A stretch of 64,000 nt of DNA from a virus. Where the stretch lies: positions 1 to 64,000 of the IMG/VR virus record IMGVR_UViG_3300010231_000003; one strand, 5' to 3'. Below are positions 14,657-30,131 of the stretch, piece by piece (the first letter of the stretch is position 1; each line of letters begins with the position of its first letter). Made by a program: the position numbers and the translations under genes. Below the pieces are notes generated by a model. The model made no database searches, had not been told where the DNA came from, and worked only from the letters and a program-made list of their open reading frames with translations.

Positions 14657-14666
14657 GGAGAACAAA

Positions 14667-15875
14667 ATGCAAGAACGTACCACTGCGAAGCAAGTAATTT
14701 ACGAAGAAGGCTCCCGTCCGATCAAAATCTGGACGAATGACATCGAGCCGGAAGCGCTGACGCAGCTCAAGAACCTGTCCCGCCTGCCGTTCATCGCGAA
14801 AGAAGGCGTTGCCTGTATGCCGGATGTCCACGCAGGCATCGGAAGCACCGTTGGCACGGTGATTGCGACGGACAGGGCTGTCATCCCGGCCGCTGTCGGC
14901 GTCGATATCGGCTGTGGCATGGTCGCTACCCGTCTGTCGCTGAAGGCACACCAGTTGCCGGACTCGCTGGCACGCATCCGCAGCGAAATCGAACGTGTTG
15001 TACCGATGGGCACGGGCGGCGAGCACAAGGATGACCGCACCATCGCCTTCCGTGCAAGCCGTCTGAACGATTCCGCCCCGGATCAGGTTTCCCGTATCGT
15101 TGGCGATCACTACCTGAAGAAAGCGGCTGGACAGCTCGGCACGCTCGGCTCCGGCAACCACTTCATCGAAATTTGTATCGACCAGAACGACGACGTGTGG
15201 GTCATGCTGCACTCCGGCTCCCGTGGCATCGGCAACATGATCGGTAAGTACTACATCGAGAAGGGCAAGGAGCTGATGAACCAGTTCCACATTACCCTGC
15301 CGGATGGCGATCTGGCGTACCTGCCTGAAGGTACGGACCTGTTCGAAGACTACGTAGCTGCTGTCCAGTGGGCGCAGGACTACGCGATGGAGAACCGCAA
15401 GGCGATGCTGCAAGCCGTGCTGGATGTGCTCCGCAAGGAGATTCCGATCCAGTTCGGCATCACGGAAGAAGCAATCAACTGCCACCACAACTACGTTACG
15501 AAGGAGAACCACTTTGGAAAGAACCTCTGGATCACACGAAAGGGAGCCATCAAGGCCGGAAAAGACGACCTCGGAATCATCCCCGGAAGCATGGGCCAGC
15601 GTTCTTATATCGTGCGAGGGAAAGGAAACAAGGAATCGTATTGTTCGTGTTCTCACGGAGCGGGGCGTAAGATGTCTCGTTCCGCCGCCCGAAAGAAGTT
15701 CACCCTCGCTGACCTCGCCGCTCAGACCGCAGGAGTGGAATGCCGAAAGGACGACGCCGTACTGGATGAAATTCCGGGCTCGTACAAGGACATCGACGTG
15801 GTGATGGACAACCAGAAATCGCTCGTGGAAGTGGTTCACGTCCTGAAGCAAGTGATGTGCTGTAAAGGGGCGTAA
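14667..15875 (+). CDS. rtcB: RtcB RNA 3'-phosphate ligase
   Basis: 402 aa with GSGNHFIE, HSGSRGIG, CHHNY and a C-terminal ..HVLKQV.. region, matching the RtcB signature. Confidence 0.9.
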   Translation: MQERTTAKQVIYEEGSRPIKIWTNDIEPEALTQLKNLSRLPFIAKEGVACMPDVHAGIGSTVGTVIATDRAVIPAAVGVDIGCGMVATRLSLKAHQLPDSLARIRSEIERVVPMGTGGEHKDDRTIAFRASRLNDSAPDQVSRIVGDHYLKKAAGQLGTLGSGNHFIEICIDQNDDVWVMLHSGSRGIGNMIGKYYIEKGKELMNQFHITLPDGDLAYLPEGTDLFEDYVAAVQWAQDYAMENRKAMLQAVLDVLRKEIPIQFGITEEAINCHHNYVTKENHFGKNLWITRKGAIKAGKDDLGIIPGSMGQRSYIVRGKGNKESYCSCSHGAGRKMSRSAARKKFTLADLAAQTAGVECRKDDAVLDEIPGSYKDIDVVMDNQKSLVEVVHVLKQVMCCKGA

Positions 15876-16712: not shown

Positions 16713-17017
16713 CGAATTACAAATTCGAGGTAGGACAGAGGGTAGAGATTCACGGTTTGCCCGAGTTCTGTACGGACGCCATCTACAACGGCATGCAGGG
16801 TATGATCGTATCGCTCCCCGGCTTCCATCCTCGTGCGAAGACGGCCTACGCTGTGCTGATCGACAACGTAGGTATCGAGGCAGCAATCGATATGTACCTC
16901 CGTCCCGCTCCGCCGAAGGGCCGGAAGGACTACGACAACGTGACCTCGTGGGCTGAGTTCGACGCCCTGACAGGGGTGAAGAGCATCACGTTCCGTCGCT
17001 CCAATCTGGATTATTGA
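16709..17017 (+). CDS. hypothetical protein
   Basis: 102 aa, RBS gaaggagaaag. Confidence 0.65.
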   Translation: MTNYKFEVGQRVEIHGLPEFCTDAIYNGMQGMIVSLPGFHPRAKTAYAVLIDNVGIEAAIDMYLRPAPPKGRKDYDNVTSWAEFDALTGVKSITFRRSNLDY

Positions 17018-17018
17018 C

Positions 17019-17219
17019 ATGGCACAGGAAAAGGAGAAGTACGAATACATCGCTCACTCCTTCGACCTTCGTGTCGGAGGGAAGCAATACTGCGACGGCT
17101 GCGGACTAGTCGGACTGAACAACCCGTTCACCGACTGGGCTATCAGAATGGGATGCTTGCACCGTCTTCACCCTTCGTACGATAACAAACGCTACGACCT
17201 TACCAAAATCTTTGACTGA
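17019..17219 (+). CDS. hypothetical Cys-containing small protein
   Basis: 66 aa with CDGCG; last gene of the rightward unit. Confidence 0.5.
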   Translation: MAQEKEKYEYIAHSFDLRVGGKQYCDGCGLVGLNNPFTDWAIRMGCLHRLHPSYDNKRYDLTKIFD

Positions 17220-17415
17220 AAGGAAACATATGATAGCCTCCCTATTGGCTCGCCTTCGCGAGCTGTTCAGGAACGACCGAATGCCGCCTACAGGCATGGC
17301 TCCTGCTTGAGCCCGCTCAAGATGTACCGGCCCATTGGGCCTAATATTCAATTGCCCGTTCCATCCGGGCGTTCCATCTGGGGCTCACGCCGACCTCGTA
17401 CTGATGGAACCTTTC

Positions 17416-17444
17416 GCCCCGCCTCGTGCGGGGCTTTTCTTTTC
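17416..17444 (+). terminator. rho-independent terminator
   Basis: GCCCCGC-ctcgt-GCGGGGC followed by TTTTCTTTT. Confidence 0.7.
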
Positions 17445-17542
17445 GCCTATGGCGTGATAGATTGAATGCTCTTCGGGATTTGCTACCCCGCATGTACGGC
17501 CTCGCCTCCTTTCTGTCACTTTGCCTAACGTGGCCGTAGAAA

Positions 17543-17580
17543 CCCCTCCCAGACCCTCCCGCTGGGCGGGGTTTTCTTTT
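17543..17580 (+). terminator. second rho-independent terminator
   Basis: CCCCTCCCAG..CTGGGCGGGG followed by TTTTCTTTT. Confidence 0.6.
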
Positions 17581-18854
17581 ATCCGGACAGGATATACCGC
17601 ATAGCGCCGTTGGCGTCATATTATCTGCACGTAAGTGCTTGATTTTAAAAAATTTTTCCATACTCAGCCATTGGCTGCATACCCTTTCCGCCCGCCAGAA
17701 ATTTTATCAACGCTATTACCGAAACTTTTCTAGCATTTCTCCTATGAAACGTGTTAAAAAATTTTTCTAAAACAGGGCCATTTTCGACACGTTTTGGGAC
17801 ATGTTGGGAAACATCGTTTTAGCTCAAGAGCGGGAGGGTGGCTTAACCGCTCGCCGTGGCCTTGGGCATGGCCCGCTAAGGGCACAGAAATATCATAGGA
17901 GAGGCCGTCAGGGGATGGACAGGGCAAACCATGCCCAATGGGCCGGACGCCTCCTAGACCCCTTAAAACGCGTCTATGCCCCTGTGTATAAAATGCAGAC
18001 GGACGTTTGCCCCGTATACAGGGGCGTATGGATGAGGAATCGTATCCGTGCCAATGGCACAGGAATGCCCCTAGGGCTCGTGTATAGGGCCGCTATAGGG
18101 CGATTGGACGTGTGGACGTGGGGTACACAGGGGACGTACTGCAAACGCGTCCTAGCTCGTTTAAAGAGTTATGTGTTTGGCCTATGGCCTAATGCATATC
18201 TATGCTGTTTGATGGGGGCCAGTGGCCCGGATACGCAAGTTTCATGCCAAGAAAGAAGAGTTAGCAATGCTGGCGAGCTTAACCAGCCCGCCCGCCTGTG
18301 TCATTGGATACAGTTATGAGACGCTATAGTGCCATTGGCACGGCGTATATGTGCCCCTGTACCCCTGTTATTAACAATGTGTATGGACTGTATGTTGTGC
18401 CATTGGCACGTGAATAACTGACCCCATAGGGGCCATATGCTGTATGTGAATGATGTATGAGAACGTTATTATTTGACGTTATATAGTGCCAATGGCACGA
18501 CGTATGTACATGGGCCTATGGCCCGGACAGTACGTTAGCGGATTGGCCCGTAAGGGGGCCAATGGAGGAAAGGGCAGGAGATGGGCCAAAGGCCCGGTAG
18601 ATATGTGTTGTGCCTATGGCACTATAGTACGCTATATGCTTTGCAGCATAACACTGTTGTATGTACGTGCCACAGGAAGCGATTAGAGCCGTTTAAACGG
18701 TGCGGGGTATGCCAGCGTACCAACAAGGGGCCATTCGTTGAGCCTAGGCCCGTTCTGATGCGTCCTAGGGCCATTGGCCCATGTAGCACTACGTACAGGT
18801 ACGGCAGACAGGTGTATGTGAGTGGTCAAGTACAGATACGTGAGTAATCAAGTA

Positions 18855-18884
18855 TTGACTAAAAGAAATGACCCCATATAGGGG
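18855..18884 (-). terminator. terminator at the end of the leftward small-gene block
   Basis: Minus strand reads CCCCTATATGGGG followed by tcaTTTCTTTT. Confidence 0.5.
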
Positions 18885-18894
18885 CCGTCTCGTG

Positions 18895-19050
18895 TCACGC
18901 ATCAGGATGCGGATACTGGGAAACATCACGGGCCAGATCGATAAGCCGTTTTGCTTGATCGTTTGTCAGTCCGCTATGCTCGGCGTATTTCTCGATAGTG
19001 AGGTAATTATTGACGTAATCGAGATACGCGTTAATCAGAATGTCCCTCAT
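18895..19050 (-). CDS. hypothetical small protein (51 aa)
   Basis: Not in the ORF track (under 60 aa). MRDILINAYLDYVNNYLTIEKYAEHSGL.. after aaggatgaattgaa. Abuts the upstream stop. Confidence 0.5.
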   Translation of the reverse strand: MRDILINAYLDYVNNYLTIEKYAEHSGLTNDQAKRLIDLARDVSQYPHPDA

Positions 19051-19051
19051 T

Positions 19052-19291
19052 TCAATTCATCCTTTCTTTGATATAGATACGCTGGCCGGAAATGTCGCAA
19101 GCGGCCGACCATGCGTTATAAACATGTTCCCCTATACGTCCGGGCTGTTCGTAGCGGATACCGAAATGATCGCAGCGCATTTCTGTGCAGAATGCATCCA
19201 GCGCTTGCCCCGGCGTTATGGCGTCAAGCGTTGCTGTAGTTTTCAAACGGTTAGCTTTACCGTGATAAAGCACGAATTCAAATTGACGCAT
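19052..19291 (-). CDS. hypothetical protein
   Basis: 79 aa, tightly packed in the leftward block. Confidence 0.6.
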   Translation of the reverse strand: MRQFEFVLYHGKANRLKTTATLDAITPGQALDAFCTEMRCDHFGIRYEQPGRIGEHVYNAWSAACDISGQRIYIKERMN

Positions 19292-19292
19292 A

Positions 19293-19538
19293 TTATTCCT
19301 CTTCGTTGAACTGGCTTACAAACGCGTCCACTTTCGATTGCAGCGTTTTATATTCGCTTTCAACTTTGGTTAAGCGGTTTTGGTAATAGGTCAATGCTTC
19401 TACAAAAGCGGCGTCAGATGTTTTTGCACGCATCGATAGATTCATGCCCCGCGTTTTATCCCATAACCAATAACCGTCACGGCACAGCGAAAGGGTTAAT
19501 GTAGGGGATAACACGGTGGAAGAAATGGCCTTACTCAT
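19293..19538 (-). CDS. hypothetical protein
   Basis: 81 aa, coiled-coil-like C-terminus. Confidence 0.6.
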   Translation of the reverse strand: MSKAISSTVLSPTLTLSLCRDGYWLWDKTRGMNLSMRAKTSDAAFVEALTYYQNRLTKVESEYKTLQSKVDAFVSQFNEEE

Positions 19539-19864
19539 TATTCACCTTTCTTCGATAACAGCATGGTTGCGGCAAACTTGATTGCCGTATCTTCCGGGTT
19601 CCATTCGTAATGCGGTTTGGAGATTTGCCCGGACATGCTGCGCGACTGGCTGTAATAAAGCTGTTCCGTGTCGGCGTCCAATACTTCGGCGTACGTGGCC
19701 CCGTATTTGTTGATTTGAAGATTGCGCATGACGTTAAGGCCAGCTTCAAACAAATTCGTGCCGTGCGTCACCTTGACGATTTCATTACGGAAGACGTAAC
19801 GCGTTTTGAGTTTCAACGGCGCCGCTTTGGTTTTGCCGTTGTTCATTACGATTTTGTCAGTCAT
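19538..19864 (-). CDS. hypothetical protein
   Basis: Start moved to ATG 19864 (MTDKIVMNNG..) after ccaaggaaataac. Confidence 0.6.
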   Translation of the reverse strand: MTDKIVMNNGKTKAAPLKLKTRYVFRNEIVKVTHGTNLFEAGLNVMRNLQINKYGATYAEVLDADTEQLYYSQSRSMSGQISKPHYEWNPEDTAIKFAATMLLSKKGE

Positions 19865-19878
19865 GTTATTTCCTTGGG

Positions 19879-20106
19879 TTAGTTCATTTGGTATGAGATG
19901 AGATTGCATTCGGTATCGCCTTTGATACCGGCAATCTTCTTTTTGGAGATGATGCAAAACGTCCGCGTCATTGTGTAAAGCTTGTCGCCAACAATACGCG
20001 CCGGAATCGCTTTGCTAATCGTGTTGCCATTAGGCCGGACAATTTCAATGTCGGCCAATGCGTTAATCTTGCGAGCGTTGCCGCTACGCATGCGAGTCTG
20101 TTTCAT
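19879..20106 (-). CDS. hypothetical protein
   Basis: 75 aa, RBS aaaggatagaac. Confidence 0.6.
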   Translation of the reverse strand: MKQTRMRSGNARKINALADIEIVRPNGNTISKAIPARIVGDKLYTMTRTFCIISKKKIAGIKGDTECNLISYQMN

Positions 20107-20120
20107 GTTCTATCCTTTTC

Positions 20121-20170
20121 AAGAGAACCCGACATAGCGCACGCGTAATGCGCTATAGCTGATTAGCTCT
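20121..20170 (-). repeat. conserved intergenic hairpin element, copy 1
   Basis: AAGAGCTAATCAGCT-ATAGCGCA-loop-TGCGCTAT-GTCGGGTTCTCTT (minus-strand reading). Nearly identical to the copy at 23968. Confidence 0.75.
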
Positions 20171-20171
20171 T

Positions 20172-20390
20172 TTACTGTAATGGACGGGACAACAAGATAT
20201 AGATGCCTGTCTGTGCATTCCAAAACGCGGGATACATGACGCCTTTGTATTTGAAATGGTCCATTCCCCTAAATGAATATGGCTTTTGCCGAATCGTTGC
20301 GATTGGCTTTTCGTATCCGGGCTCTTGTTCCTCATACGCATGTGTACGGAAAACCAAAACCGTATTAGGCGCTTTATATTTGCGGTCCAT
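20172..20390 (-). CDS. hypothetical protein
   Basis: 72 aa. Confidence 0.55.
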   Translation of the reverse strand: MDRKYKAPNTVLVFRTHAYEEQEPGYEKPIATIRQKPYSFRGMDHFKYKGVMYPAFWNAQTGIYILLSRPLQ

Positions 20391-20630
20391 TTAATACCCC
20401 TTTTCGATTGCCCATTTTTCGATATCGTCCAGAATGGCGGGCTCCATTACATGGGCCATGCCGTCATTGCTTTCGAGTTCGCCTGTATCCTGTGCACAGG
20501 AAAGCGATGCGTTATAGCGTTTGCCTGTGGACGATTTGTATTCGATATACACGCCGTTTCCGCCCTCACCGTTTACATTCAAAATCAGCTCAACGGAGTA
20601 TTGCCCGAATTTCTCATTAAACACGTTCAT
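20391..20630 (-). CDS. hypothetical protein
   Basis: 79 aa. Confidence 0.6.
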   Translation of the reverse strand: MNVFNEKFGQYSVELILNVNGEGGNGVYIEYKSSTGKRYNASLSCAQDTGELESNDGMAHVMEPAILDDIEKWAIEKGY

Positions 20631-21106
20631 TTCGATTTACCTTTCATCGGTCGAATGGTGATGCACATTCCACGGCCAGCGCCTTTACCGTGCCACAGAG
20701 CCCCGTGCACGTCGATAACCCGAATGTGCGTGATAGTCGATCCATGCCAGCCCGAACGGCTATCGCCTTCCGAAATGACGCGGCCCAAGATGTTACCTTT
20801 CCAGCCCGTTACGTGTTTACCGTCGCTGGACAGATAGCAGAAAAACGGCTTGGTACGGTCGAGCAATTCCCGTCGCTCGCGGATGTTTACCCCATCGTCA
20901 GAAAACACATTGCCGTTATGGTCCCGTGCGTAATTCGTCGTGATGCCGTCTTGCGCTGCAATGAATTTCTTGCCCGTTTCAGTGCACGTCAATTCGTCCC
21001 CGAATTTGATTACCGGCATTCCGTTAATGTCTTTGTCCATTTCAATATTCCATTTGTCAGTTAATCCGTGAATGCCCACGTTTGATTTATGCTCGCGCAT
21101 GGGCAT
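20627..21106 (-). CDS. hypothetical protein
   Basis: 159 aa, overlaps the downstream start by 4 nt. Confidence 0.6.
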   Translation of the reverse strand: MPMREHKSNVGIHGLTDKWNIEMDKDINGMPVIKFGDELTCTETGKKFIAAQDGITTNYARDHNGNVFSDDGVNIRERRELLDRTKPFFCYLSSDGKHVTGWKGNILGRVISEGDSRSGWHGSTITHIRVIDVHGALWHGKGAGRGMCITIRPMKGKSK

Positions 21107-21127
21107 TGGCTGATTAACGCTATCGCA

Positions 21128-21613
21128 TTAGTTGTTCCAGAAATAATGTCCGTCCGATTCGAAAAACGATTCGATCATTAATTCATGAGCGTAATGTTTC
21201 CAGTCGATGAAACTAAACATCGGGTGATTATCATCGATAAGGCCCGCTTCTATTGCATGTTCCATTGCGAAGTCTTCAGGCGAATTGTATTTCCCCCTGA
21301 AATTCTCTTGTGCATCTTTAAACTCGCATTCACCATTATTGGCGATATATGCGGCCCACATTTCACGGTCACTTTCACTTAATGCGGCAAGCTCGAAAAC
21401 CTTTTCATCAATCGATGATTCGGAAATCAAGTCTTTCGGAATGTCTTCCCAGTCTTGAAACATGAATTCCGGATCGTGTTCATTTTTATGCAATTCCTTA
21501 CATGCCTCGTAAAACTCGTCTTTATCGGCATAGTCTTCAATGTCCAGCCATGCACCGTAAAGATTGCCGCTATTGTATTTGCCGTACGTGCCGACATAAA
21601 CGCGCATAGTCAT
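21128..21613 (-). CDS. ardA: ArdA-like antirestriction protein
   Basis: N-terminus VYVGTYGKYNSGNLYGAWLDIEDYADKDEFYEACKELHKNEHDPEFMFQDWEDIP matches my recollection of the ArdA family. Acidic, 161 aa. Confidence 0.7.
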   Translation of the reverse strand: MTMRVYVGTYGKYNSGNLYGAWLDIEDYADKDEFYEACKELHKNEHDPEFMFQDWEDIPKDLISESSIDEKVFELAALSESDREMWAAYIANNGECEFKDAQENFRGKYNSPEDFAMEHAIEAGLIDDNHPMFSFIDWKHYAHELMIESFFESDGHYFWNN

Positions 21614-21624
21614 TTCATTTCCCC

Positions 21625-21978
21625 TTATTCACCGTACGCCGATTCGATTTGATTGCCGCAATACTCGCAAATCAAGTCTTTATCTTCCCAGTTGATATCG
21701 CATGCGATTGCGCCGTTATGCAACAAGTCACGCGATACGCTTTTGTATTCTTTCCGTGCGCAATCCATGCAAATGCAATCTCCGTCGTTATTCACGAGGA
21801 AAAGCGGATAACCGCCGGGCCATGCATGCTTACCGTTGCGGATAGTTGCCCGCAATTCCAGCGTGGTATGAATACGCTTGAACGTACAGATGTATTTCGG
21901 ACGGATAACGGTTAATTCCGTTTTGTGCGTCAAATCTCCGAACGATTCAAACACATTAGCGAATTGATCGTAGGACAT
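21625..21978 (-). CDS. hypothetical Cys-rich protein
   Basis: 117 aa with WPGGYPLFLVNNDGDCICMDC..CEYCG (zinc-ribbon-like). Confidence 0.6.
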   Translation of the reverse strand: MSYDQFANVFESFGDLTHKTELTVIRPKYICTFKRIHTTLELRATIRNGKHAWPGGYPLFLVNNDGDCICMDCARKEYKSVSRDLLHNGAIACDINWEDKDLICEYCGNQIESAYGE

Positions 21979-22280
21979 TATTTTTCCTTTACCTTGAATT
22001 CGTAGTTAGTGACGGGCTGAATAGTCACGCCGTAATGCTCTAGAAACGCGCCATAAGCGCTTGCAAGCGTTTGCCATGCATCCGCATCATCTGGGATGCC
22101 AAGTAGCTCTAAACGCTTGTCTATGGCCCGTTCATAGCATCGGGGCATATTGTTTGCATCGGCTCCGATGTCAGTTGTTACGCCGTGCCCATTAACCCGA
22201 ATCACAAAGCTATTCGGGTTTTGCTTATGGCGGCGAAACGTGATGCCACGCGGCGCACCGTTTGAGTATAGAAGTTTCAT
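21978..22280 (-). CDS. hypothetical protein
   Basis: 100 aa. Confidence 0.6.
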   Translation of the reverse strand: MKLLYSNGAPRGITFRRHKQNPNSFVIRVNGHGVTTDIGADANNMPRCYERAIDKRLELLGIPDDADAWQTLASAYGAFLEHYGVTIQPVTNYEFKVKEK

Positions 22281-22285
22281 AGCCT

Positions 22286-22344
22286 TGAATGTTAGTTAGT
22301 CCGACAATGCCGACTAGTGAAAACATCGGCATTAGCTGAATAGC
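22286..22344 (-). repeat. intergenic hairpin element, variant copy
   Basis: GAATGTTAG, then stem AATGCCGA/TCGGCATT, then AGCTGAATAGCT. Shares the flanking motifs of the other copies. Confidence 0.55.
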
Positions 22345-22680
22345 TTACATTTCCTCGTACGTCTTAGCGGCCCATTCAATGAACGGGGTAACACCCAATC
22401 CATGCAAGCCGTATCCGATTGCGTCACCAGCGTACGAAACAACGTGACTATCGGAATGCCCAAGCGCTTTCGATATGAATACGCCGACGATTGCCACGCT
22501 AGCGCCGGTAATCAGGCGTTGCGCTAACGAATGCTCTTTTCCGAACATGGATGAGCAAATAGGCCGGATAACGTTGATCCGTGCAATTGCTTTCATTACA
22601 AACGGCGTCCGTTCTTTTGCCTGTGGCATGACAGACAGTTTGTTTTTACGACGGAGGGGCGACACGTTATGACGAAGCAT
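22345..22680 (-). CDS. hypothetical membrane-associated protein
   Basis: 111 aa, hydrophobic central segment, RBS aaaggaataataaaa. Confidence 0.55.
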   Translation of the reverse strand: MLRHNVSPLRRKNKLSVMPQAKERTPFVMKAIARINVIRPICSSMFGKEHSLAQRLITGASVAIVGVFISKALGHSDSHVVSYAGDAIGYGLHGLGVTPFIEWAAKTYEEM

Positions 22681-22704
22681 TTTTATTATTCCTTTCAGTT
22701 GTTA

Positions 22705-23319
22705 TTAGATATTGAAAAACGATTTGATGTCGTGATGCTTTTTACTTCCCGGTGCATGAATAAACATCACTTGAGTATTACCTACCATTGCATTAAACGG
22801 CTTTACCTTGAATTCAGTTACAACGAAATCATGTTCGGCAAGCCATTTAATAATCTTATCGTCGTGCAACCACATACGCGCCTGTTCTGCGCTTGCGAAG
22901 CCATAACGCCAGTTTTCGGCATCCTCAGTTAATGGCGTGCCGTTCACGAGCGCCCAAAGCGGGTCAGGGTTAATCAGACTACGCGCCGCCATTTGACGGC
23001 CCAATTTCGAGTCTGACCAAGGCGACGGATGCAACGCCCGGTTTTTGCTGTTGTCGTAATAGGGGCATTCACCTAAACCGGGGTAGGGCTCACAGTTATA
23101 CATGCCCTTGCCGTTATTCTTGTTTTCGATACGGAAAACCGTAACGGGCTCAACCGGCCCCATATTCAAACCGTCGCCGTTCATAATCGCTTCGGCTTCG
23201 TCCAATTCTGGCGGTTCAAAGTTATTCAAATCGGCCGGAAAGCACAGAATTTCGTTTCCATCGTTCGTCAGAATCAGTATTGCGCCGTCGTCATCGCGAT
23301 GTACTTTTATTTTCAACAT
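22705..23319 (-). CDS. hypothetical protein
   Basis: Start moved to ATG 23319 (MLKIKVHRDDDG..) after aagaggaataacaaa. 204 aa. Confidence 0.6.
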   Translation of the reverse strand: MLKIKVHRDDDGAILILTNDGNEILCFPADLNNFEPPELDEAEAIMNGDGLNMGPVEPVTVFRIENKNNGKGMYNCEPYPGLGECPYYDNSKNRALHPSPWSDSKLGRQMAARSLINPDPLWALVNGTPLTEDAENWRYGFASAEQARMWLHDDKIIKWLAEHDFVVTEFKVKPFNAMVGNTQVMFIHAPGSKKHHDIKSFFNI

Positions 23320-23392
23320 TTTGTTATTCCTCTTGGGGTTGTAATAGTAAATCCATGTATGCCACGCAATAACGCGGGCATACATTGAGCTA

Positions 23393-23935
23393 CTAAGCCA
23401 TTTCGATAATACGGCATTCTTCGATTACATCGGCCGCATTCATGCGAGCGATATAACCGGGCAATTGAGCGGCAACCCATGCCATTTGATCGTCCGGGAA
23501 TTGCCCGCCATTGCATGCGGCATACATCGATTGTCCGATAGTGTCGGCGTACATCATGATTGCCTCAAGCGAATCATGGCCGAATTCCGCTTGCACTTCT
23601 TTCACGTGGATTGCACCGATGGCGATTTCTTCGGCCGTCGTAAATCCTTTGTTCAGGACGCAATGCAAAACGTCGTGCCAGAACCGGAAAGCGTAGTTTG
23701 CGCCGGGGTTCGTGTAGATCGTCTTATCGCTTTGCCCGTTCCACACTGGCAAGGCCATACGGGACGATTTAGAAGCGTTCCACGCCGTTTTAAGTTCGTC
23801 GTAGTCGTTCGGTGCGTTCGGCACGTCAACGTAGCCAAAACCCACTTTAGCGGCCGTGTCACGCGCTTTCGTGATAACGAAGCTGGACAGGTTGCGGCGT
23901 GCCGCTTCAATGTTATTGATGTGTGCAAAAGTCAT
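23393..23935 (-). CDS. hypothetical protein
   Basis: 180 aa, RBS agggaaacaaa. Confidence 0.6.
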   Translation of the reverse strand: MTFAHINNIEAARRNLSSFVITKARDTAAKVGFGYVDVPNAPNDYDELKTAWNASKSSRMALPVWNGQSDKTIYTNPGANYAFRFWHDVLHCVLNKGFTTAEEIAIGAIHVKEVQAEFGHDSLEAIMMYADTIGQSMYAACNGGQFPDDQMAWVAAQLPGYIARMNAADVIEECRIIEMA

Positions 23936-23967
23936 TTTGTTTCCCTAGTTTTATTGGTTATTCGGAT

Positions 23968-24017
23968 AAGAGAATCCGACATAGCGCACCGTAATGCGCT
24001 ATAGCTGATTAGCTCTT
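23968..24017 (-). repeat. conserved intergenic hairpin element, copy 2
   Basis: Same ~50-nt sequence as 20121-20170, with stem ATAGCGCA/TGCGCTAT. Confidence 0.75.
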
Positions 24018-24303
24018 AATGCGGGTTGCGGAATCCATCGGTATTTTCCGCTTCCATTTCGGCCAGCGTTTGACGGGGCGGACGCTCGAAATGCTCATCC
24101 AATGCCCGTTGCAATTCGATAGCGCATCCGTGCCACGCTTGCCCGGATACCATCGGCGTGTCCAATTTTTCAGGCGTGCTAGCGGCGACGGATTTGGAAT
24201 ACTGTTCCAGCGCTTGCATGATGAATACTTGCATTAGTGCGCCATGATTCGAATATTCCATGATGTGTTTCACGAATTGGATATTGGTCTTACGACGAGC
24301 CAT
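24016..24303 (-). CDS. hypothetical protein
   Basis: 95 aa. Confidence 0.6.
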   Translation of the reverse strand: MARRKTNIQFVKHIMEYSNHGALMQVFIMQALEQYSKSVAASTPEKLDTPMVSGQAWHGCAIELQRALDEHFERPPRQTLAEMEAENTDGFRNPH

Positions 24304-24306
24304 GAT

Positions 24307-24420
24307 TTACTTTCCTTTGATCGATTGAATGAGTGCCATGCGAAACGCTACGCGTCCGGGCATGTCCTGTGCAACCACTTTAGCGGCAGCGGCCGCGTTG
24401 AATGCTGGAATTGGAATCAT
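24307..24420 (-). CDS. possible 37-aa peptide
   Basis: MIPIPAFNAAAAAKVVAQDMPGRVAFRMALIQSIKGK fills the gap between two genes. Not in the ORF track. Confidence 0.3.
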   Translation of the reverse strand: MIPIPAFNAAAAAKVVAQDMPGRVAFRMALIQSIKGK

Positions 24421-24422
24421 GA

Positions 24423-24740
24423 TTAGATCGCGTTTGCAGCGCTAATAAGCGCTTGCATTACAGTGTGCATGTTTTCGTTATATTCCGGGGTTTTACCGGG
24501 CTCATAATAACCATAAGAGATTCGGCCGTAGTCGTATTCAGCCATGACGAATTCTTTAACGTATTGTTCAACGCCAGAATTCCACACACATTCTCTTTTA
24601 GTAATCCCGTCGATATTCCTATCGACATCCGCGAACATTACACGTCCATCCGGCAACACGGTGCATGCAATGCGTTGCCCCTTATCGGAGTATTGACGGC
24701 CAGTGTTAAACACTGTGATACGCGACAGATTGACAGCCAT
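24423..24740 (-). CDS. hypothetical protein
   Basis: 105 aa, RBS aaggggg. Confidence 0.6.
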   Translation of the reverse strand: MAVNLSRITVFNTGRQYSDKGQRIACTVLPDGRVMFADVDRNIDGITKRECVWNSGVEQYVKEFVMAEYDYGRISYGYYEPGKTPEYNENMHTVMQALISAANAI

Positions 24741-24956
24741 TTAAACCCCCTTGTAAGCGATCAATTCGCCGTTGAAATTGTAGATATGCGTAGCGCCGAA
24801 CTTGCGAGCGTCATAGCATTGGAGCCATTCCATTGCGGCCGAATAGCTCCACGCATGATGCATCACTTTGAAATGAGCATTGCGGACAGTGTACGGCGCA
24901 AGGCAATTCACGCTTTCCACGAAAAACGATTTGATTGCGCTTTTGAATTTCTTCAT
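24741..24956 (-). CDS. hypothetical protein
   Basis: 71 aa, RBS agggggaag. Confidence 0.6.
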   Translation of the reverse strand: MKKFKSAIKSFFVESVNCLAPYTVRNAHFKVMHHAWSYSAAMEWLQCYDARKFGATHIYNFNGELIAYKGV

Positions 24957-24977
24957 TACTTCCCCCTAATTAACATC

Positions 24978-25016
24978 GCACGACATAGCGCACAGAATGC
25001 GCTATAGCTTGAAATG
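24978..25016 (-). repeat. intergenic hairpin element, copy 3
   Basis: Stem ATAGCGCA/TGCGCTAT, then AGCTTGAAATGTTAG. Confidence 0.65.
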
Positions 25017-25391
25017 TTAGACCGTCCATCCATCCCGGCCAGCATTGTAATAAAGCATCGACCCATCAGAGAATTTCCAATGATAGATATCGCTTTGTTC
25101 GCCTTTCGATACGCAACGAGCATTTGCCGCGTCACGCATCGTTGCGCTGCTGTATCCGGCCGCTTTGAAGTCAGACAGGAAACGGGCCGCTACTTTCTCA
25201 CGCTCGCACATACGCTTTGCAGTTTCGAAAGCATCCTCATTATCCGTCGTGAAATAATCGGCCGGTTCATAATGCGCGCCACTGATAAACAGTTGGCAAA
25301 CATATTCCTCCGTGCCTCCGTCGTATTTGATTTTGACGATTCGGCCAGTTGTACCGGCATCAGGCAATTGCACAATTTTAATCAGTCGCAT
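25017..25391 (-). CDS. hypothetical protein
   Basis: 124 aa, RBS acggaggtaataaa. Confidence 0.6.
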   Translation of the reverse strand: MRLIKIVQLPDAGTTGRIVKIKYDGGTEEYVCQLFISGAHYEPADYFTTDNEDAFETAKRMCEREKVAARFLSDFKAAGYSSATMRDAANARCVSKGEQSDIYHWKFSDGSMLYYNAGRDGWTV

Positions 25392-25455
25392 TTTATTACC
25401 TCCGTTTTAACATCACATACAAAAGCGCTAACACGTAGCGCTTTAATCTGGAATG

Positions 25456-25632
25456 TCAGTCCTTTACTTCGTGGATATCCATTTGATGGAATTTGCTATT
25501 CAACGGATTAGGATGCGGGTAATTAACGAATGTCGTCAACGCTTCGAACCTCGATTCCGCATACTCGCATGCCGTATAAAGGACATCGTTGTTTTCGCCG
25601 AAAATAACGAATTGGTATTTCTTCATTTTCAT
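25456..25632 (-). CDS. hypothetical small protein (58 aa)
   Basis: Not in the ORF track. MKMKKYQFVIFGENNDVLYTACEYAESRF.. after aaaggagcaatg. Confidence 0.55.
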   Translation of the reverse strand: MKMKKYQFVIFGENNDVLYTACEYAESRFEALTTFVNYPHPNPLNSKFHQMDIHEVKD

Positions 25633-25640
25633 TGCTCCTT

Positions 25641-25844
25641 TTAGATAATGAATTCTTTATGGTTTTTCACGCCGAACAATTCCGCATATTCCATCAATGC
25701 GGCATGTTGCGCTTTGGTACGGCATGCACGAATCAACGCGGACAGTCCACGCGATACAGTGTCTTGCATGTCTCCGAGTTTGTAATAAATCGCGAGTTTT
25801 TGAATCTCTTTCAATTGCGATTTGTTCAAAGCTTCGAGTGCCAT
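25641..25844 (-). CDS. hypothetical protein, first gene of the leftward block
   Basis: 67 aa, RBS taggagattcaaaa. Confidence 0.6.
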   Translation of the reverse strand: MALEALNKSQLKEIQKLAIYYKLGDMQDTVSRGLSALIRACRTKAQHAALMEYAELFGVKNHKEFII

Positions 25845-26005
25845 TTTTGAATCTCCTAAGTGATAAATTCGGAACCGCTATTTCAAACGGTTCCTAGTTT
25901 TATCAACCTAGCTAGGGACGCATCCCGCGTGCCTAGTGTGTTGCGCTATCCTGTAGTCATCCCGACTAGAATTCTTACAGCGCCAATTGTGCGTTAGGCA
26001 TACCA

Positions 26006-26914
26006 TCCCGGCATTCCCTCCGCTTACGCTTCCCGGCATCTTGTGGCACGGGCTCGATAGTCGAGCGTCAATTGTATTTCGTAGGTTGTTAAAGAGCGAA
26101 CTTCCCGGCATCCTCATCCTTGCCTTGCCTGTGCTATCCATCTAGCGGCGTCCGCCACTTCGCACAGGGTAAGCGCCTATGGCTTTGCCCCGTCTCCTTA
26201 GTAGCGTTCTGTACTAAGGAGACTCCATTCTAATGACTCTTCAGGGTATGCGCAATACCCCGCGCAAAATAATTTGTAACAGAGATGCGACACGTGCCGG
26301 ATGCCCAAAAGGAGAAATGCGCCCGCGTGGCGTGCACATGCGTACGCGCACGCGTAGCAAGAACCGTGCCAAGGCCGATTTTCGCATACTGTGTTTTTAT
26401 ACAGTAAAACGCCGTAGAGCCGTTTTTCGGGGTAGGTTGATATGCCGGGATAGGTTGCTGTGGATAACTCAATGTACCCCCCTTAAAACGCGTTTAAACG
26501 GTATGCCATTGTGGATAACTTTTGCCCAAAATCATGCCTTTTCGTGGGCTCGCATGTAAATCGACCTGTTTATTTCTGTAAAATCTACATAAAAATCGCG
26601 TCACAATGGCCGAGTTATCCACAGGCGATTTTGTGTTTTCCCTTTAAAATCAACTACTTGAGTCTTATATAAGAGCACATTTCAGTCTTATATAAGATAT
26701 AGGACTACTCTTATATAAGAGTGCTACATGAGCAACATTTGTTTCTCTCGCTACATCATGGCACGGCGATTGCATAGGCAAGTAGTGTGCCAGCTAGCAC
26801 TACATACCAAACGGCCGGATAGATAGCGCTACGAAACGTTACAGGGTATGCCGGATACCATTCAACATTTGGGCACGGGCTGATACAGTGGGCAATCTGG
26901 CATCCATGCCGGGA
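26006..26914. repeat. TCCCGGCAT iteron-like 9-mers (three direct, two inverted, one degenerate)
   Basis: Perfect copies at 26006, 26031 and 26103 (direct) and at 26442 and 26906 (inverted). A one-mismatch copy lies at 26848. Confidence 0.7.
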
Positions 26915-27248
26915 CAGTAGGCGTTACTTATGGGCAAGTGTGCCCATTGGCCGACTATTGCCGAAAGGAAAAGTATTGCTAGGATGCTAACACTACCTAT
27001 GCCACGTGTTTTGCTATCGATTCCACGCTATCGATAGGATTCGTTGTTTGCTATGGGTTCTTACCAATCGATAGGCTATAGCGATTCCCTATCAGCCGGG
27101 ACCATATGATGGGCGTTTGGCTATCGATTGTGGATAACCTGTCACCGGAGCAACATTGTGGCCGAACGACCGTGCTTTTTGACAAGTTATCCACAGAACG
27201 GGCGTGCTTTTCCGTGGTTATCCACAGGTTATCCACATTTTGTCCACA
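26459..27248. other. putative replication origin: two DnaA-box clusters flanking AT-rich palindromes
   Basis: Perfect TTATCCACA/TGTGGATAA boxes at 26459, 26510, 26615, 27129, 27187, 27218 and 27229, plus TTGTCCACA at 27240. Three CTCTTATATAAGAG-type palindromes lie at 26661-26721, and there are four CTATCGAT repeats at 27013-27128. Confidence 0.7.
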
Positions 27249-27339
27249 AAAAGTACTTTTGAGCAACTTTTCTGCTGCGATGCACCATTTCGGGCAGTTC
27301 CGGGGCAGAGGACGGGGTTTCCTTTTTAAGAAGAGACTC

Positions 27340-27462
27340 AAAAATTCCCCAGTCCCTGTGGAAAATCTGACTTTTGAAATCCAGATCGAATTCCGAAAAT
27401 CTTTCCCAAATGAAAACGCCCCAGCACAGGCCGGGGCGAAATTTTTGCGGAAATTTTTACGG
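27340..27462. repeat. copy A of the duplicated regulatory segment
   Basis: aaaaattccccagtccctgtggaaaatctgacttttgaaatccagatcgaattccgaaaatct.. aligns with 30007-30131. The match is strong over about 65 bp and weaker beyond. Confidence 0.7.
27412..27446. terminator. bidirectional terminator
   Basis: CGCCCC-agcacagg-CCGGGGCG flanked by an A run and a T run. Follows the stop of the 27472 gene on the minus strand. Confidence 0.6.
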
Positions 27463-27471
27463 CGGGGGCCG

Positions 27472-27909
27472 TTACCGGGGAAGCGGATCGACGTAATTTC
27501 CGATGTGCGTGCAGTGGGATGCAACCCATTCTGCCGTAAGGTCTGGACGCTCTTTCCAGCCCCAGTTGCCGACGAAGCAATCGGAGTATCGATGCTCATC
27601 GGACGAGGCCACGGAGCCGTCCCAACGCGTGATATACAGCGTTTCGATAGCGTATTCCTGATCGTCACTCAGACGCGTGGTTTGCCAGCCTGTGACGTAC
27701 GTAGGGCCGGTTGCACGGCTCGAAAGCATGTAGCGAATGAGGGCCGCTTCAAGTGATGCCAGCCTGTCATCAGTTGCCAGCTTGATATCGAATACGTTTC
27801 GGGCTCGATAGGCCATATCATCAAGGGCCAATTGTACCAACTGCTTTTCATGCTCCGTCAGCATTTCGCGATGGGCGAGCGCGTCACGGTCAGCGTGCGA
27901 AAGGGTCAT
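27472..27909 (-). CDS. hypothetical protein
   Basis: 145 aa, RBS gaaggagaatttgt, coding-like composition. Confidence 0.65.
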   Translation of the reverse strand: MTLSHADRDALAHREMLTEHEKQLVQLALDDMAYRARNVFDIKLATDDRLASLEAALIRYMLSSRATGPTYVTGWQTTRLSDDQEYAIETLYITRWDGSVASSDEHRYSDCFVGNWGWKERPDLTAEWVASHCTHIGNYVDPLPR

Positions 27910-27948
27910 ACAAATTCTCCTTCAGGTTGATGAATCTCAAGCATACAG

Positions 27949-27976
27949 TAAAAAATAAATGCCCGCAACAGCGGGC
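27949..27976 (-). terminator. rho-independent terminator
   Basis: Minus strand reads GCCCGC-tgtt-GCGGGC followed by atTTATTTTTT. Confidence 0.6.
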
Positions 27977-27996
27977 CTATACGTAGGTAACACTAC

Positions 27997-28161
27997 TTAC
28001 TGGTACGAGTTGAAGAACTCCGCCTGATCCCGCTTGTCGTTATCACGGGTCCACTGCTTACCGCGTTTCTGCTGCGGTTTCTGTTCCTGCTGTTCGCCAC
28101 GCGGCGGACGCTGGTTGGAGTTCTTGCGCGTGGTACGTTCGAAGTTGAAATTGCCTTGCAT
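27997..28161 (-). CDS. small basic Gln/Arg/Lys-rich protein (54 aa)
   Basis: Not in the ORF track. MQGNFNFERTTRKNSNQRPPRGEQQEQKPQQKRGKQW.. after leader cacaaccaactagggag. Has its own promoter and terminator. Confidence 0.5.
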   Translation of the reverse strand: MQGNFNFERTTRKNSNQRPPRGEQQEQKPQQKRGKQWTRDNDKRDQAEFFNSYQ

Positions 28162-28217
28162 GGTCTTGCTCCCTAGTTGGTTGTGACGCTGAGCGTCGTA
28201 GTTAAGTAGTGCTACGT

Positions 28218-28246
28218 ATGATAATGGCCTACGAAAAACCCGTCAA
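28218..28246 (-). promoter_or_regulatory. sigma70-type promoter (leftward)
   Basis: Minus strand reads TTGACG-ggtttttcgtaggccat(17)-TATCAT. Confidence 0.6.
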
Positions 28247-28475
28247 GGGTTTTGTGTAGAAATCAGAGGGCAGAGGATTTGTTGCGGGGACGCCACACGG
28301 ACAAGCCGAGGGTGACGTTGAGGCGATGCCACGCCGGGACAGGTCGGTTGATGCCGCGCCAGATGGAAGGGATGTCGAGAATGGTTTTCATATCACGTTG
28401 TCGGGGACAGGAGTTGATGGAAATCAAACGATATCACATCATCCTGCCCCGCACAACGGCTAACCCGGAGCGGGC

Positions 28476-29333
28476 TTATTTCTTCTTAGCTGGTGCGGGC
28501 GAGCGTTGGAACTTGCCACCGGCCCCGCGTGTCGTCTTCGTCTGTGCTGGAGCGGGATCGGCCTTTGGTTGCTCTGCCGGAGCCTGTGCGGCTGTCTTCG
28601 TCGCCTCGTCATGCAGCGCCTGTGCCGCCGTGGCGAGCGGATCACTGAGCCCGGTGACTTGAGCCAGCATTTCCTTGCGCCTGCGCAACTCTTCCTGCGA
28701 CTCGCGTTCGATCTGCTGTTCGAATTCGGCCGTGAGTTCCTTGCACGCCTGTTTCGTCGCGTCATAATCCGTGGTAGCGTTCTGGATCGTGGCCGTCAGT
28801 TGAGCCATGCGGGCGTTCAGTTCCTTGATACGGCGGAACATGACAGCGCTCGGAGGCTCGTTAGGATCGATTGCAGGGGCCGTAGAAGCGTTCGAAGCGG
28901 GCAGCGCAGCCGGAACCTCACCAGCCTTCGGTAAATCGCCTGTAGGGCCGCTAGGAGCGTTCTGTGCGTCGATGGGCTTGGCACTGGACTTGCGTTGCGT
29001 AGCCGGAGCCTGTTGCTTGTCTTCGTTCACAACGCTAGCCGGGGCTGCTGCGCCTGCCAGCATGTTAGGAAGCGGACGCGAGGTACGGGGCATACGGTGC
29101 GTGATACGAACGACCTGATCTTGCTTGCCCGTCGCTTGCTTGAAGCGCTCCATCAGTACGCGTTCGTCATCGGCGGACAGGGGCATGGTCATCTTGTAGT
29201 AGTCCAGCGGCATGAACTCCGGTTTGCCGGTTCCTTTCCAAACCTGAATCTTGTTGCCGTTGATCGTATCGCGGAGGAAGACGACCGCAGCCTCTTGTGC
29301 GGGGTCGAAGCGGCAGAGGATATCGGTAGGCAT
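28476..29333 (-). CDS. hypothetical protein with a Pro/Ala-rich linker and coiled coil
   Basis: 285 aa, RBS taggagttacacc, Lys-rich C-terminus. Confidence 0.7.
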   Translation of the reverse strand: MPTDILCRFDPAQEAAVVFLRDTINGNKIQVWKGTGKPEFMPLDYYKMTMPLSADDERVLMERFKQATGKQDQVVRITHRMPRTSRPLPNMLAGAAAPASVVNEDKQQAPATQRKSSAKPIDAQNAPSGPTGDLPKAGEVPAALPASNASTAPAIDPNEPPSAVMFRRIKELNARMAQLTATIQNATTDYDATKQACKELTAEFEQQIERESQEELRRRKEMLAQVTGLSDPLATAAQALHDEATKTAAQAPAEQPKADPAPAQTKTTRGAGGKFQRSPAPAKKK

Positions 29334-30006
29334 GGTGTAACTCCTATAAGGGTTGAGGTTTAGTGTCCGTTTGCTACGAGTGCTGCAAGGACAGTTCGAA
29401 GATTACACCGTTCTGTATGGAATTCAAGGGGGTAAATCAATCGTGTGGGCTCTTTTTGATAAAAATTTGATAACGATGTTGTGACGATACAACGGAACAC
29501 AAAATAAAGTTTGATGTCATTGCCATGTAACACTTCCTTCGACCTACGTGTCCTACGTCACGTAGTCTCGGTCCTACAAATCAACGAGTTACGTACGAAG
29601 GTAGGTAGCACTACTTACATATCGATATGACAGGAGCATTACATATTTACTATCTTTGTTACGTAAATATGGACAGACGTACAGGAGTTTCAATCGTGCG
29701 TCATGACGTGCGCCCAAAATTCGTGTAAAGTGAGAAGTGGGTAGAAGATTACCTGTTCCCAGAAACACGGATTTTCTGCTTAAAAGTTGTTCAAAAAGCT
29801 AGGAAATGTAAGGTTTCCTAGCTGCTGCATTGTCTAAACGGAGGAAAGTTAGCGGATACGTAGTGAAAAGACAACATTGCTTATAACATTTCTTATGAGA
29901 AACATCATAGGGAAGGGAGTTGCTTTACCTAAAGATTTGATGTAGGTAAGCAACATAGTAAGGTGTTTTGTACCTAGGTAGAGCTATCTATATATAAGAA
30001 AGAAGT

Positions 30007-30131
30007 AAAAATTTCCCCATCCCCTGTAGAAATTCTGACTTTTGATTTCCAAATCGATTTCCGAAAATCTACTGGGAACGAAAATAAGTAGCACTACCTG
30101 CTTGACACCGCAAAAAATTTACGGAATAATG
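30007..30131. repeat. copy B of the duplicated regulatory segment
   Basis: aaaaatttccccatcccctgtagaaattctgacttttgatttccaaatcgatttccgaaaatct.. Includes the promoter at 30102. Confidence 0.7.
30102..30130 (+). promoter_or_regulatory. sigma70-type promoter of the rightward replication operon
   Basis: TTGACA-N17-AATAAT, followed by leader caccaaccaaccaaggagagaac. Confidence 0.6.

Follow-up and report, generated by a model that had tools for sequence, protein, structure and literature searches.

The DNA analysed here (hereafter the window) is a stretch of 64,000 nt, positions 1–64,000 of IMG/VR record IMGVR_UViG_3300010231_000003, and comes from an uncultured phage of ~90 kb. Between positions 18895 and 25844 (all block coordinates are window positions), it carries a block of about 20 small, mostly non-core leftward genes. 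We read this block, with a probability of roughly 60%, as a hyperplastic accessory region, probably early and partly devoted to counter-defence, of a virulent-type phage that probably infects Enterobacterales. The only block member with a demonstrable anti-defence identity is the antirestriction protein ArdA. Many of the other products would act early on host defence or physiology, and the strongest candidates for such a role are a 180-aa HDxxH protein with its linked membrane protein, a 130-aa beta-rich protein encoded beside ArdA, and a zinc-ribbon protein.

A variable block between conserved flanks

The gene content of the block differs among related phages to a much greater extent than that of its flanks. 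IMG/VR contains a family of 80–92-kb contigs with the same backbone as the window phage, and the RtcB-to-ligase interval was rebuilt for four of these relatives (R1–R4; R2 is IMGVR_UViG_3300037467_000294), with gene calls taken as simple tilings of open reading frames (ORFs). R1 has 13 of the 21 block genes, R2 has eight, R3 has seven, and R4 has three, while seven genes occur in none of the four. The flanking genes in R1–R3 (serine recombinase, HD phosphohydrolase, RtcB, four small genes, p54, p285, DNA ligase, and RNA ligase) are 50–98% identical to those of the window. Across these three relatives, block genes are present in 28 of 63 cases versus 41 of 51 for flank genes (Fisher p = 1e-4), bearing out the hypervariability that an initial annotation of this DNA, made from its letters, had expected. 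In the corresponding interval, each relative shows 23–29 ORFs on the minus strand, the majority of which lack a window homolog. Most shared block genes keep their order, and one rearrangement is seen in R2. A variable block between kept flanks indicates a hyperplastic accessory region, as in T4-type phages and in those of Silas et al. (bioRxiv 10.1101/2023.04.06.535777), where phage accessory regions are hotspots of anti-defence genes.

Minus-strand ORFs tile 18895–25844 with gaps mostly of 0–25 nt and with strong canonical Shine-Dalgarno sequences, and the coding fraction of the block is 0.94. Substitutions between the window and R1 are distributed over codon positions 1, 2, and 3 as 166:114:409 (59% at third positions), indicating that the block ORFs are real coding sequences under purifying selection. 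We count 20 confident leftward genes and one doubtful 37-aa ORF, and the independent gene calling of the Joint Genome Institute (JGI) on the identical source contig gives the same 20 genes. About 24 small ORFs in a single orientation had been proposed; the orientation and the density stand, and the count has to be lowered. The size range of 37–204 aa given with that proposal is correct provided that a 226-aa ORF starts at 23319, which makes it 204 aa.

The block is also poor in GC. The initial annotation judged it AT-richer by eye, and the windowed values agree: GC is 47.2% in the block versus 53.6% in the rest of the window, the lowest among 229 sliding windows of the same length. Third codon positions have a GC fraction of 0.54 within the block, compared with 0.61 elsewhere (Mann-Whitney p = 2e-4), and GC at first and second positions is likewise lower. 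On the two computable points that could have spoken against a distinct island, GC differs from the rest of the window and the block is not strictly conserved. Its described placement, with a palindrome array on the left (17858–18769) and an origin-like region on the right (26459–27357), was also recovered.

ArdA and the avoidance of restriction sites

21128–21613, minus strand: ArdA antirestriction protein, 161 aa (159 aa in the JGI call); PF07275, phrog_2059

Homology places this product securely in the ArdA antirestriction family. It matches PF07275 with E = 1.2e-24 and 88.1 bits against a cutoff of 27, over model positions 1–152 of 155, and phrog_2059 ("anti-restriction protein") with E = 2.2e-22. 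Compared with the Tn916 ORF18 structure 2W82 (phmmer E = 1e-4), residues 3–157 align to chain residues 4–159 of 165. The isoelectric point (pI) of 4.3, the Asp+Glu content of 23%, and the net charge of -25 are as a DNA mimic would have. ArdA would thus be expected to mimic DNA and to block host Type I restriction-modification enzymes. The protein had been singled out as the only recognisable member of the block, and no other block protein matched a family of known function. Searches of the block proteins in Pfam, NCBIfam, and PADLOC matched ArdA alone, and PHROGs gave no function-labelled match beyond ArdA, apart from the doubtful "DNA ligase" label of phrog_18452. Sequence searches of the PDB, run with single proteins and family profiles (226-, 180-, 159-, 108-, and 117-aa proteins), returned no significant match.

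The ArdA family is rare in GenBank phages (34 of 50,697 records), and the block protein is at most 33% identical to the ArdA proteins of GenBank phages versus ~44% identical to ArdA of enterobacterial conjugative plasmids. Its nearest relatives sit on plasmids of Pantoea, Enterobacter, and Klebsiella. These plasmid relatives, the DnaA boxes of the window, which match the Escherichia coli consensus, and the total avoidance of CCWGG point to an enterobacterial host as the probable one.

Restriction sites are purged from the phage to a striking degree. The whole 64 kb contains no CCWGG site versus ~147 expected from composition, and 17 of the 64 hexamer palindromes, each expected 14–22 times, are wholly absent. 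The relatives R1–R4 hold 0–2 CCWGG sites per ~36 kb, and within the block all of the purged sites (CCWGG and the 17 hexamer palindromes) are missing. Type I sites are unavoided in the window, with 17 for EcoKI and 14 for EcoBI. These counts are consistent with passive escape from Type II enzymes by site loss, combined with ArdA acting against Type I enzymes, whose bipartite sites may be too diverse to purge.

R2, which is without ArdA, encodes three strongly acidic proteins in a row in the corresponding part of its block (merged coordinates 16924–19106). They are 202, 172, and 214 aa long, with pI values of 4.1–4.3 and net charges of -21, -22, and -34, and none of the three matches a Pfam family. 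These properties are compatible with the trio being candidate alternative DNA mimics that replace ArdA. The 214-aa protein, the only one of the trio so compared, was also considered as a divergent ArdA; BLASTP gave E = 0.38, which does not support that assignment.

Gene-content breakpoints at intergenic hairpins

The block contains six intergenic spacers of at least 60 nt, all of which fold into stable hairpins of -14 to -26 kcal/mol:

20107–20171, minus strand: spacer element, GAGCTAATCAGCTA-TAGCGCA/TGCGCTA hairpin-TGTCGG, -19.1 kcal/mol; R1 homology ends at 20170
21020–21127, minus strand: spacer 3' of ArdA, strong hairpin, -25.8 kcal/mol; conserved with R1; breakpoint at 21024
22281–22344, minus strand: spacer element, CAGCTA-ATGCCGA/TCGGCAT hairpin-TGTCGG, -14.1 kcal/mol; kept in R1, R2, and R3; left edge of a three-gene indel relative to R2
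23936–24015, minus strand: spacer element, GAGCTAATCAGCTA-TAGCGCA/TGCGCTA hairpin-TGTCGG, -22.4 kcal/mol; breakpoints at 24020 (R1) and 24002 (R2)
24957–25016, minus strand: spacer element, AGCTA-TAGCGCA/TGCGCTA hairpin-TGTCG, -15.9 kcal/mol; R1 breakpoint at 25019
25392–25455, minus strand: variant spacer, AAGCGCTA-cgtgt-TAGCGCTT followed by TTGTATG, -14.9 kcal/mol; kept in R1 and R2; R1 breakpoint at 25459

The frame (GAGCTAAT)CAGCTA-hairpin-TGTCGG is common to four of the spacers, and a variant of it occurs in a fifth. In the window and the relatives taken together, the stem comes in four versions (TAGCGCA/TGCGCTA, ATGCCGA/TCGGCAT, ATGCCTAG/CTAGGCAT, and AAGCGCTA/TAGCGCTT), always perfectly complementary, and the R3 copy of the 22281–22344 element has a compensated stem. 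Because the stem sequences vary yet stay complementary, the structure itself appears to be selected. The exact TAGCGCA-N-TGCGCTA hairpin occurs three times in 64 kb, with none expected; all three copies lie within the block and are kept at matching places in R1. Four of the six window matches to the frame AGCTA-N-TGTCG are inside the block, on the transcribed strand. An extra AGCTA-hairpin-TGTCG copy with the stem TTCCTT/AAGGAA lies outside the block at 51790–51822 (minus strand), between two plus-strand genes.

Indel and replacement breakpoints coincide with this repeated CAGCTA-hairpin-TGTCGG element. The upstream edges of the R1 homology segments in the block (20170, 24020, 25019, and 25459) lie at the upstream ends of hairpin spacers, and a further edge at 21024 falls at the sixth spacer. 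By a hypergeometric estimate with 20 gene junctions, six of which carry hairpins, the chance that four breakpoints all fall on hairpin junctions is ~0.003. Relative to R2, the window holds a 1.66-kb insertion of three genes (the membrane protein, a Y00F-like protein, and the 180-aa protein) bounded by the spacers 22281–22344 and 23936–24015. The R2 breakpoints are at 22345 and 24002, and R2 carries a single hybrid spacer at the insertion junction.

Gene shuffling mediated by promoter early stem-loops (PeSLs) occurs in T4-type phages (PMC2839356, PMC4122927). In the spacer elements of the block, the promoter scan found no sigma-70 promoter and inspection found no -35/-10 pair. Since the promoter half is undetectable, the element resembles a PeSL in recombination without being one. 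On RNA, the hairpins may serve as intercistronic processing, stabilising, or attenuating structures; on DNA, they would offer short patches of homology that allow cassettes to be swapped by recombination, analogous to the PeSLs of T4. The block provides a clean case, outside T4-like phages, of cassette turnover at conserved intergenic hairpins.

Block families found in early or leading-end regions of other phages

For three families with no assigned function (the 180-aa, Zn-ribbon, and 130-aa families), homologs occur in unrelated phages at early or leading-end positions. Together with the neighbours of the 180-aa gene and one further family, their members in the block are:

23393–23935, minus strand: 180-aa protein, phrog_7806; studied by AlphaFold2 model, family alignment, and positional homologs
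22345–22680, minus strand: 111-aa basic protein with one predicted membrane segment (Kyte-Doolittle 1.8)
22705–23319, minus strand: 204-aa protein, phrog_1106; the ORF extends to 23385 (226 aa)
20627–21106, minus strand: 159-aa ORF beside ArdA, with a probable start at M30 (21019) giving 130 aa
21625–21978, minus strand: 117-aa Cys-rich protein, seven Cys, C-terminal CxxC...CxxC zinc ribbon; phrog_18452
19293–19538, minus strand: 81-aa protein, phrog_19040 (E = 1.4e-33); absent from R1–R4

The 180-aa protein gives the clearest positional signal. By tblastn, its family occurs in 81 GenBank phages, mostly Autographiviridae, near the left genome end. In the T7-like phage Phi-S1, the homolog, gp01, is encoded between three annotated sigma-70 promoters, which it follows immediately, and the RNA polymerase gene; in BB8 it is gp03. 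In T7, Ocr occupies the slot where Phi-S1 carries this homolog. An alignment of 29 metagenomic homologs shows invariant N80, F83, R84, H87, D88, H91, E103, E124, D131, T132, and Q135, which suggests a putative metal or catalytic site. The AlphaFold2 model is confident (predicted local distance difference test, pLDDT, 90.8; predicted template modelling score 0.86), and the predicted fold is all-helical. No structural neighbour of the model was found in the PDB (best E = 2.3, template modelling score (TM) below 0.3), and the matches in BFVD were uncharacterised podophage proteins only (E = 2e-8, TM ~0.7).

Wherever the 180-aa protein is encoded (the window, R1, R3, and R4), the 111-aa membrane protein is encoded too; R2 has neither. 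A small membrane protein was also considered as a partner of the T7-like homologs; the neighbour is inconsistent there. Between the two genes lies that of the 204-aa protein, whose start at 23319 is backed by homologs of 203–204 aa and by an AAGAGGA ribosome-binding site. The precomputed annotation of an identical protein lists PF26820 (Phage_T4_Y00F, a T4 ORF of unknown function); our direct Pfam search gave no PF26820 match, and tblastn against GenBank phages found Sinorhizobium phage phiM9 only.

A bolder proposal, which we put forward as a doubtful one, is that the 180-aa family is an unrecognised enzymatic effector of counter-defence or host takeover, and that the CAGCTA-hairpin-TGTCGG elements are a promoter-less PeSL analogue driving cassette exchange outside the T4 group. 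The effector part draws on the confident fold without a solved relative, on the invariant HDxxH...E...E...DT constellation resembling a metal site, on the place of the family among the earliest genes of many T7-like phages, where T7 itself has Ocr, and on its joint movement, in the window lineage, with a small membrane protein in a mobile cassette bounded by hairpins.

The gene beside ArdA had been described as encoding 159 aa. The gene stands, and its product is probably 130 aa, because homologs of ~130 aa align from residue ~32, model residues 1–20 have low pLDDT, and an R1 breakpoint falls at 21024. The 130-aa family is abundant (364 cluster representatives, 104 at E < 1e-10). In all six sampled contigs, its genes lie in a short run of small ORFs, either at a divergent junction with packaging genes or at a leading end before RNA polymerase or replication genes, and one of these runs has a Lar restriction-alleviation gene downstream. 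The AlphaFold2 model of the 159-aa protein (pLDDT 89.5) has a beta-rich domain with a weak, partial resemblance to an eIF5A-like barrel (E = 0.09, TM 0.27), which was too slight to be used as a guide to function.

The 117-aa product was correctly described as a Cys-rich, zinc-ribbon-like protein. In Caulobacter jumbo phages, homologs of its family lie within the terminal repeats. The "DNA ligase" label of phrog_18452 was rejected for this 117-aa Zn ribbon, and the real ATP-dependent ligase of the window is encoded at 30883–32244. Many phage records label phrog_18452 Zn-ribbon proteins of ~95–117 aa as "DNA ligase", which is almost certainly a propagated mis-annotation.

The 81-aa family gives a weaker signal, the weakest of the positional early or leading-end ones. 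Its gene is common to E. coli jumbo phages, with two places per record in several of them, and to some Pseudomonas plasmids; in one jumbo-phage record, the match is annotated under direct terminal repeats.

Transcription and timing

Two elements frame the block:

25845–25960, minus strand: conserved leader upstream of the first gene, with a GGAACCG/CGGTTCC hairpin at 25871–25894
18870–18886, minus strand: intrinsic terminator found by terminator scan, GGCCCC-tatat-GGGGTC followed by a T-rich tail, predicted fold -14.8 kcal/mol; closes the block

About 100 nt of the leader are strongly conserved in three phages, and the R1 hairpin shows a compensatory C-G to T-A change. Transcription of the block would run from the leader at ~25.9 kb to the terminator at 18.87 kb and yield one or a few polycistronic units. 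A scan with the sigma-70 consensus, the only promoter model used, found no canonical site in 25845–26000, and the nearest weak site is at 26560–26531 (9 of 12 matches). Early expression is suggested by the positional homology of the block families and by analogy with the distantly related PAK_P4, whose early region consists of unique hypothetical proteins (PMC5563952).

Weighing the readings

Several observations weigh against an early, partly counter-defensive accessory region. A counter-defence identity can be demonstrated for one of the 21 block genes. No known anti-defence family was matched among 10 replacement genes of R1–R4. The confident models of the 180-aa and 159-aa proteins match no characterised protein, so that any mechanism for the block genes without assigned function is a guess. 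Over the whole sigma-70 scan, 14 sites were found versus 18.4 expected, with no enrichment and nothing convincing upstream of the block, and the spacer elements are without the promoter half that defines PeSLs. Adjacency to ArdA as a trait of the 130-aa family had to be downgraded to a weak hint: in one contig (L067), the neighbour is an ArdA-like gene at 27.0 bits, exactly the Pfam threshold, and it is dissimilar to the block ArdA. Finally, the comparison of variability and breakpoints covers only four relatives. The likeness to an early anti-defence island claimed in the initial annotation holds for composition, the small unidirectional genes, ArdA, and hypervariability, and goes no further: neither in the block nor in the equivalent slots of the relatives was a second known anti-defence, defence, or host-takeover family matched.

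The foremost alternative, which we consider possible, is a generic ORFan or "moron" region of small, dispensable genes that are tolerated and vary in function (superinfection exclusion, regulation, metabolic tweaks, or selfish genes), in which ArdA is a lone passenger. It would account for the 19–20 genes without a functional match in Pfam, PHROGs, NCBIfam, PADLOC, or the PDB, for the replacement genes of the relatives, which are likewise without known family, and for the failure to detect an early promoter. However, several families recur specifically at leading-end or early regions of unrelated phages, the acidic trio of R2 is compatible with replacement of one mimic by another, and the shared genes are under clear purifying selection. 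These features favour an accessory region with a counter-defence component.

A recent foreign import, for instance from the leading region of a conjugative plasmid, would explain a GC content 6.4 points below the rest of the window and an ArdA nearer to plasmid than to GenBank phage homologs, and is nevertheless improbable. Megablast found no close DNA relative of the block among GenBank phages and plasmids. In distant blastn searches, phages matched the 81-aa gene only, and plasmids matched nothing but the 81-aa gene and the opening ~190 nt of ArdA; the 159-aa neighbour of ArdA has no plasmid homolog. The likeness to plasmid leading regions that had been suggested holds for ArdA alone; among the other block genes, the 81-aa gene is the only one with plasmid relatives. 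In addition, 13 of the 21 genes are collinear with R1, and CCWGG and the hexamer palindromes are purged from the block as they are from the whole genome. This purge indicates that the block has long been under the constraints of its lineage, and together with the lack of plasmid relatives it speaks against a recent import.

Least credible of all is a block of largely noncoding or regulatory DNA with chance ORFs, a view that can draw on the 37-aa ORF without ribosome-binding site or homolog and on six other ORFs without a homolog in the four relatives, and that is contradicted by the tight tiling with canonical ribosome-binding sites, the excess of third-position substitutions, the PHROG or metagenome homologs of most ORFs, and the 20 genes called independently by JGI.

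Remaining genes of the block

The other ORFs, from left to right, are:

18895–19050, minus strand: 51-aa acidic protein, pI 4.95; PHROG families 26669 and 4907 (function unknown); in R2 and R3, not in R1
19052–19291, minus strand: 79-aa ORFan with a good ribosome-binding site; no homolog in R1–R4
19538–19864, minus strand: 108-aa basic protein; 94–95% identity in R1 and R2, 82% in R3; the most conserved gene of the block
19879–20106, minus strand: 75-aa basic protein, pI 10.2; among the relatives only in R1
20172–20390, minus strand: 72-aa ORFan with a good ribosome-binding site; no homolog in the relatives
20391–20630, minus strand: 79-aa acidic protein, pI 4.4, net charge -7; only in R2, at a rearranged position
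21978–22280, minus strand: 100-aa protein; in R1, R2, and R3 (59–89% identity); no family match
24016–24303, minus strand: 95-aa protein, phrog_7895 (E = 1.4e-21); in R2, and in R3 by reverse search; not in R1
24307–24420, minus strand: doubtful 37-aa ORF; no ribosome-binding site, no homolog, uncalled by JGI
24423–24740, minus strand: 105-aa ORFan with a good ribosome-binding site; no homolog in the relatives
24741–24956, minus strand: 71-aa basic protein; in R1 and R4; weak phrog_30187 match
25017–25391, minus strand: 124-aa protein; N-terminal half phrog_7884, common to R1 and R2; C-terminal half unique
25456–25632, minus strand: 58-aa ORFan with a good ribosome-binding site; no homolog in the relatives
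25641–25844, minus strand: 67-aa protein, the first gene of the block; in R1 and R2 (78–82% identity)

The 108-aa gene is core-like and strongly constrained, since its identity in R1 and R2 (94–95%) exceeds that of RtcB (81–90%); no family or PDB match was found for it. The 124-aa gene is chimeric, as its N-terminal half is shared and its C-terminal half is unique.

Surroundings of the block

An identical copy of one block protein is encoded on the 90,576-bp JGI metagenome contig 3300010384 Ga0136217_1000101. The family-A DNA polymerase of the window is 47–51% identical to those of Aeromonas phiA047-like and Pseudomonas KPP10/PAK_P-like phages, and other window products include a primase-helicase, ThyX, an ATP-dependent DNA ligase, an RNA ligase, RtcB, an HD phosphohydrolase, a serine recombinase, and an HNH endonuclease. 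About 22 tRNA genes form an array at 6.7–9.8 kb. This array (6710–9778) and the genes for the HD phosphohydrolase and RtcB (13592–15875) adjoin, and the RNA ligase gene lies further right (33079–34239). Together, they plausibly form a toolkit for tRNA repair and replacement against host anticodon nucleases, i.e., a second counter-defence module. The serine recombinase/invertase gene at 12709–13377 (phrog_95/125; Resolvase Pfam in the JGI annotation) is kept in R1–R3, in a phage that is otherwise lytic-looking.

Just downstream of the block, palindromes of the form [G/T]GCC-NNN-GGC[C/A], such as GTGCCATTGGCAC and GGGCCTATGGCCC, are concentrated: 11 of the 18 sites in the window fall within 17858–18769. 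This array is ~68% conserved with R1 and R2, and the 172-aa ORF that JGI places over it is poorly conserved. It may be a candidate array of binding sites for a dimeric protein. To the right of the block, the noncoding 1.6 kb at 25845–27475 is 79% conserved with R1 and contains TCTTATATAAGA repeats at 26658–26720 and paired CTATCGAT motifs. Eight consensus DnaA boxes (TTWTCCACA) lie in 26459–27357. The noncoding region looks like a candidate origin that would recruit host DnaA, an unusual feature in a large phage of virulent type. Two direct copies of a 76-nt repeat (82% identity; 27327–27402 and 29995–30070) flank a small group of leftward genes at 27472–29333, and the right copy is just upstream of the best sigma-70 promoter of the region (30102–30130, TTGACA-17-AATAAT), at the head of the replication module.

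Comparison with known systems

The class I early region of T7 encodes Ocr (gp0.3) and has RNase III hairpins between its early genes. The block resembles it in carrying a gene for a predicted DNA-mimic anti-restriction protein in a unidirectional run of small genes with hairpins between them, and its 180-aa family comes first in Phi-S1. In contrast to T7, the DNA mimic belongs to the ArdA family, the block is internal to a ~90-kb genome with myovirus-like relatives, and no strong early promoters were detected. The ArdA of the block shares full-length homology and strong acidity with the ArdA of plasmids and Tn916 (PF07275; 2W82), with ~44% identity to the enterobacterial plasmid proteins, and differs from them in being phage-encoded and outside any plasmid leading region. 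The leading region of conjugative plasmids lies beside oriT and carries ssb and psiB, whereas the replicon here is a phage with DNA polymerase I, a primase-helicase, and a tRNA array.

PAK_P3/PAK_P4-type Pseudomonas phages have distantly related replication genes (DNA polymerase ~47%) and a long run of unique small hypothetical genes. Their run is expressed early, as that of the block may be, and no block gene was shown to be common to both. Compared with the regions of T4-type phages shuffled by PeSLs, the block shares a repeated, stable intergenic stem-loop within a variable region, breakpoints at the motif, and ORFan cassettes bounded by it. Its element is without a sigma-70-like promoter, its stems are not of the G-tract/C-tract kind, and the phage is unrelated to T4-like phages.

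The closest parallel is with the accessory regions of Silas et al., which likewise consist of small, fast-turnover genes between core genes, include a known counter-defence factor (here ArdA), and are made up mostly of members that annotation leaves without a function. Unlike those regions, the block has one known counter-defence gene, the homologous slots of four relatives have none, and the lineage is uncultured. At present, no source of new anti-defence proteins is richer than phage accessory regions, and the block yields a short ranked list of candidates: the 180-aa HDxxH protein, a family that comes first in many T7-like phages; the abundant 130-aa family; the Zn-ribbon protein found in jumbo-phage terminal repeats; and the acidic proteins of R2. 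The genome also pairs near-total avoidance of Type II sites with an ArdA that would be directed at Type I systems. In these respects, the block overturns none of the current ideas on phage accessory regions and extends them to an uncultured lineage of ~90-kb phages.

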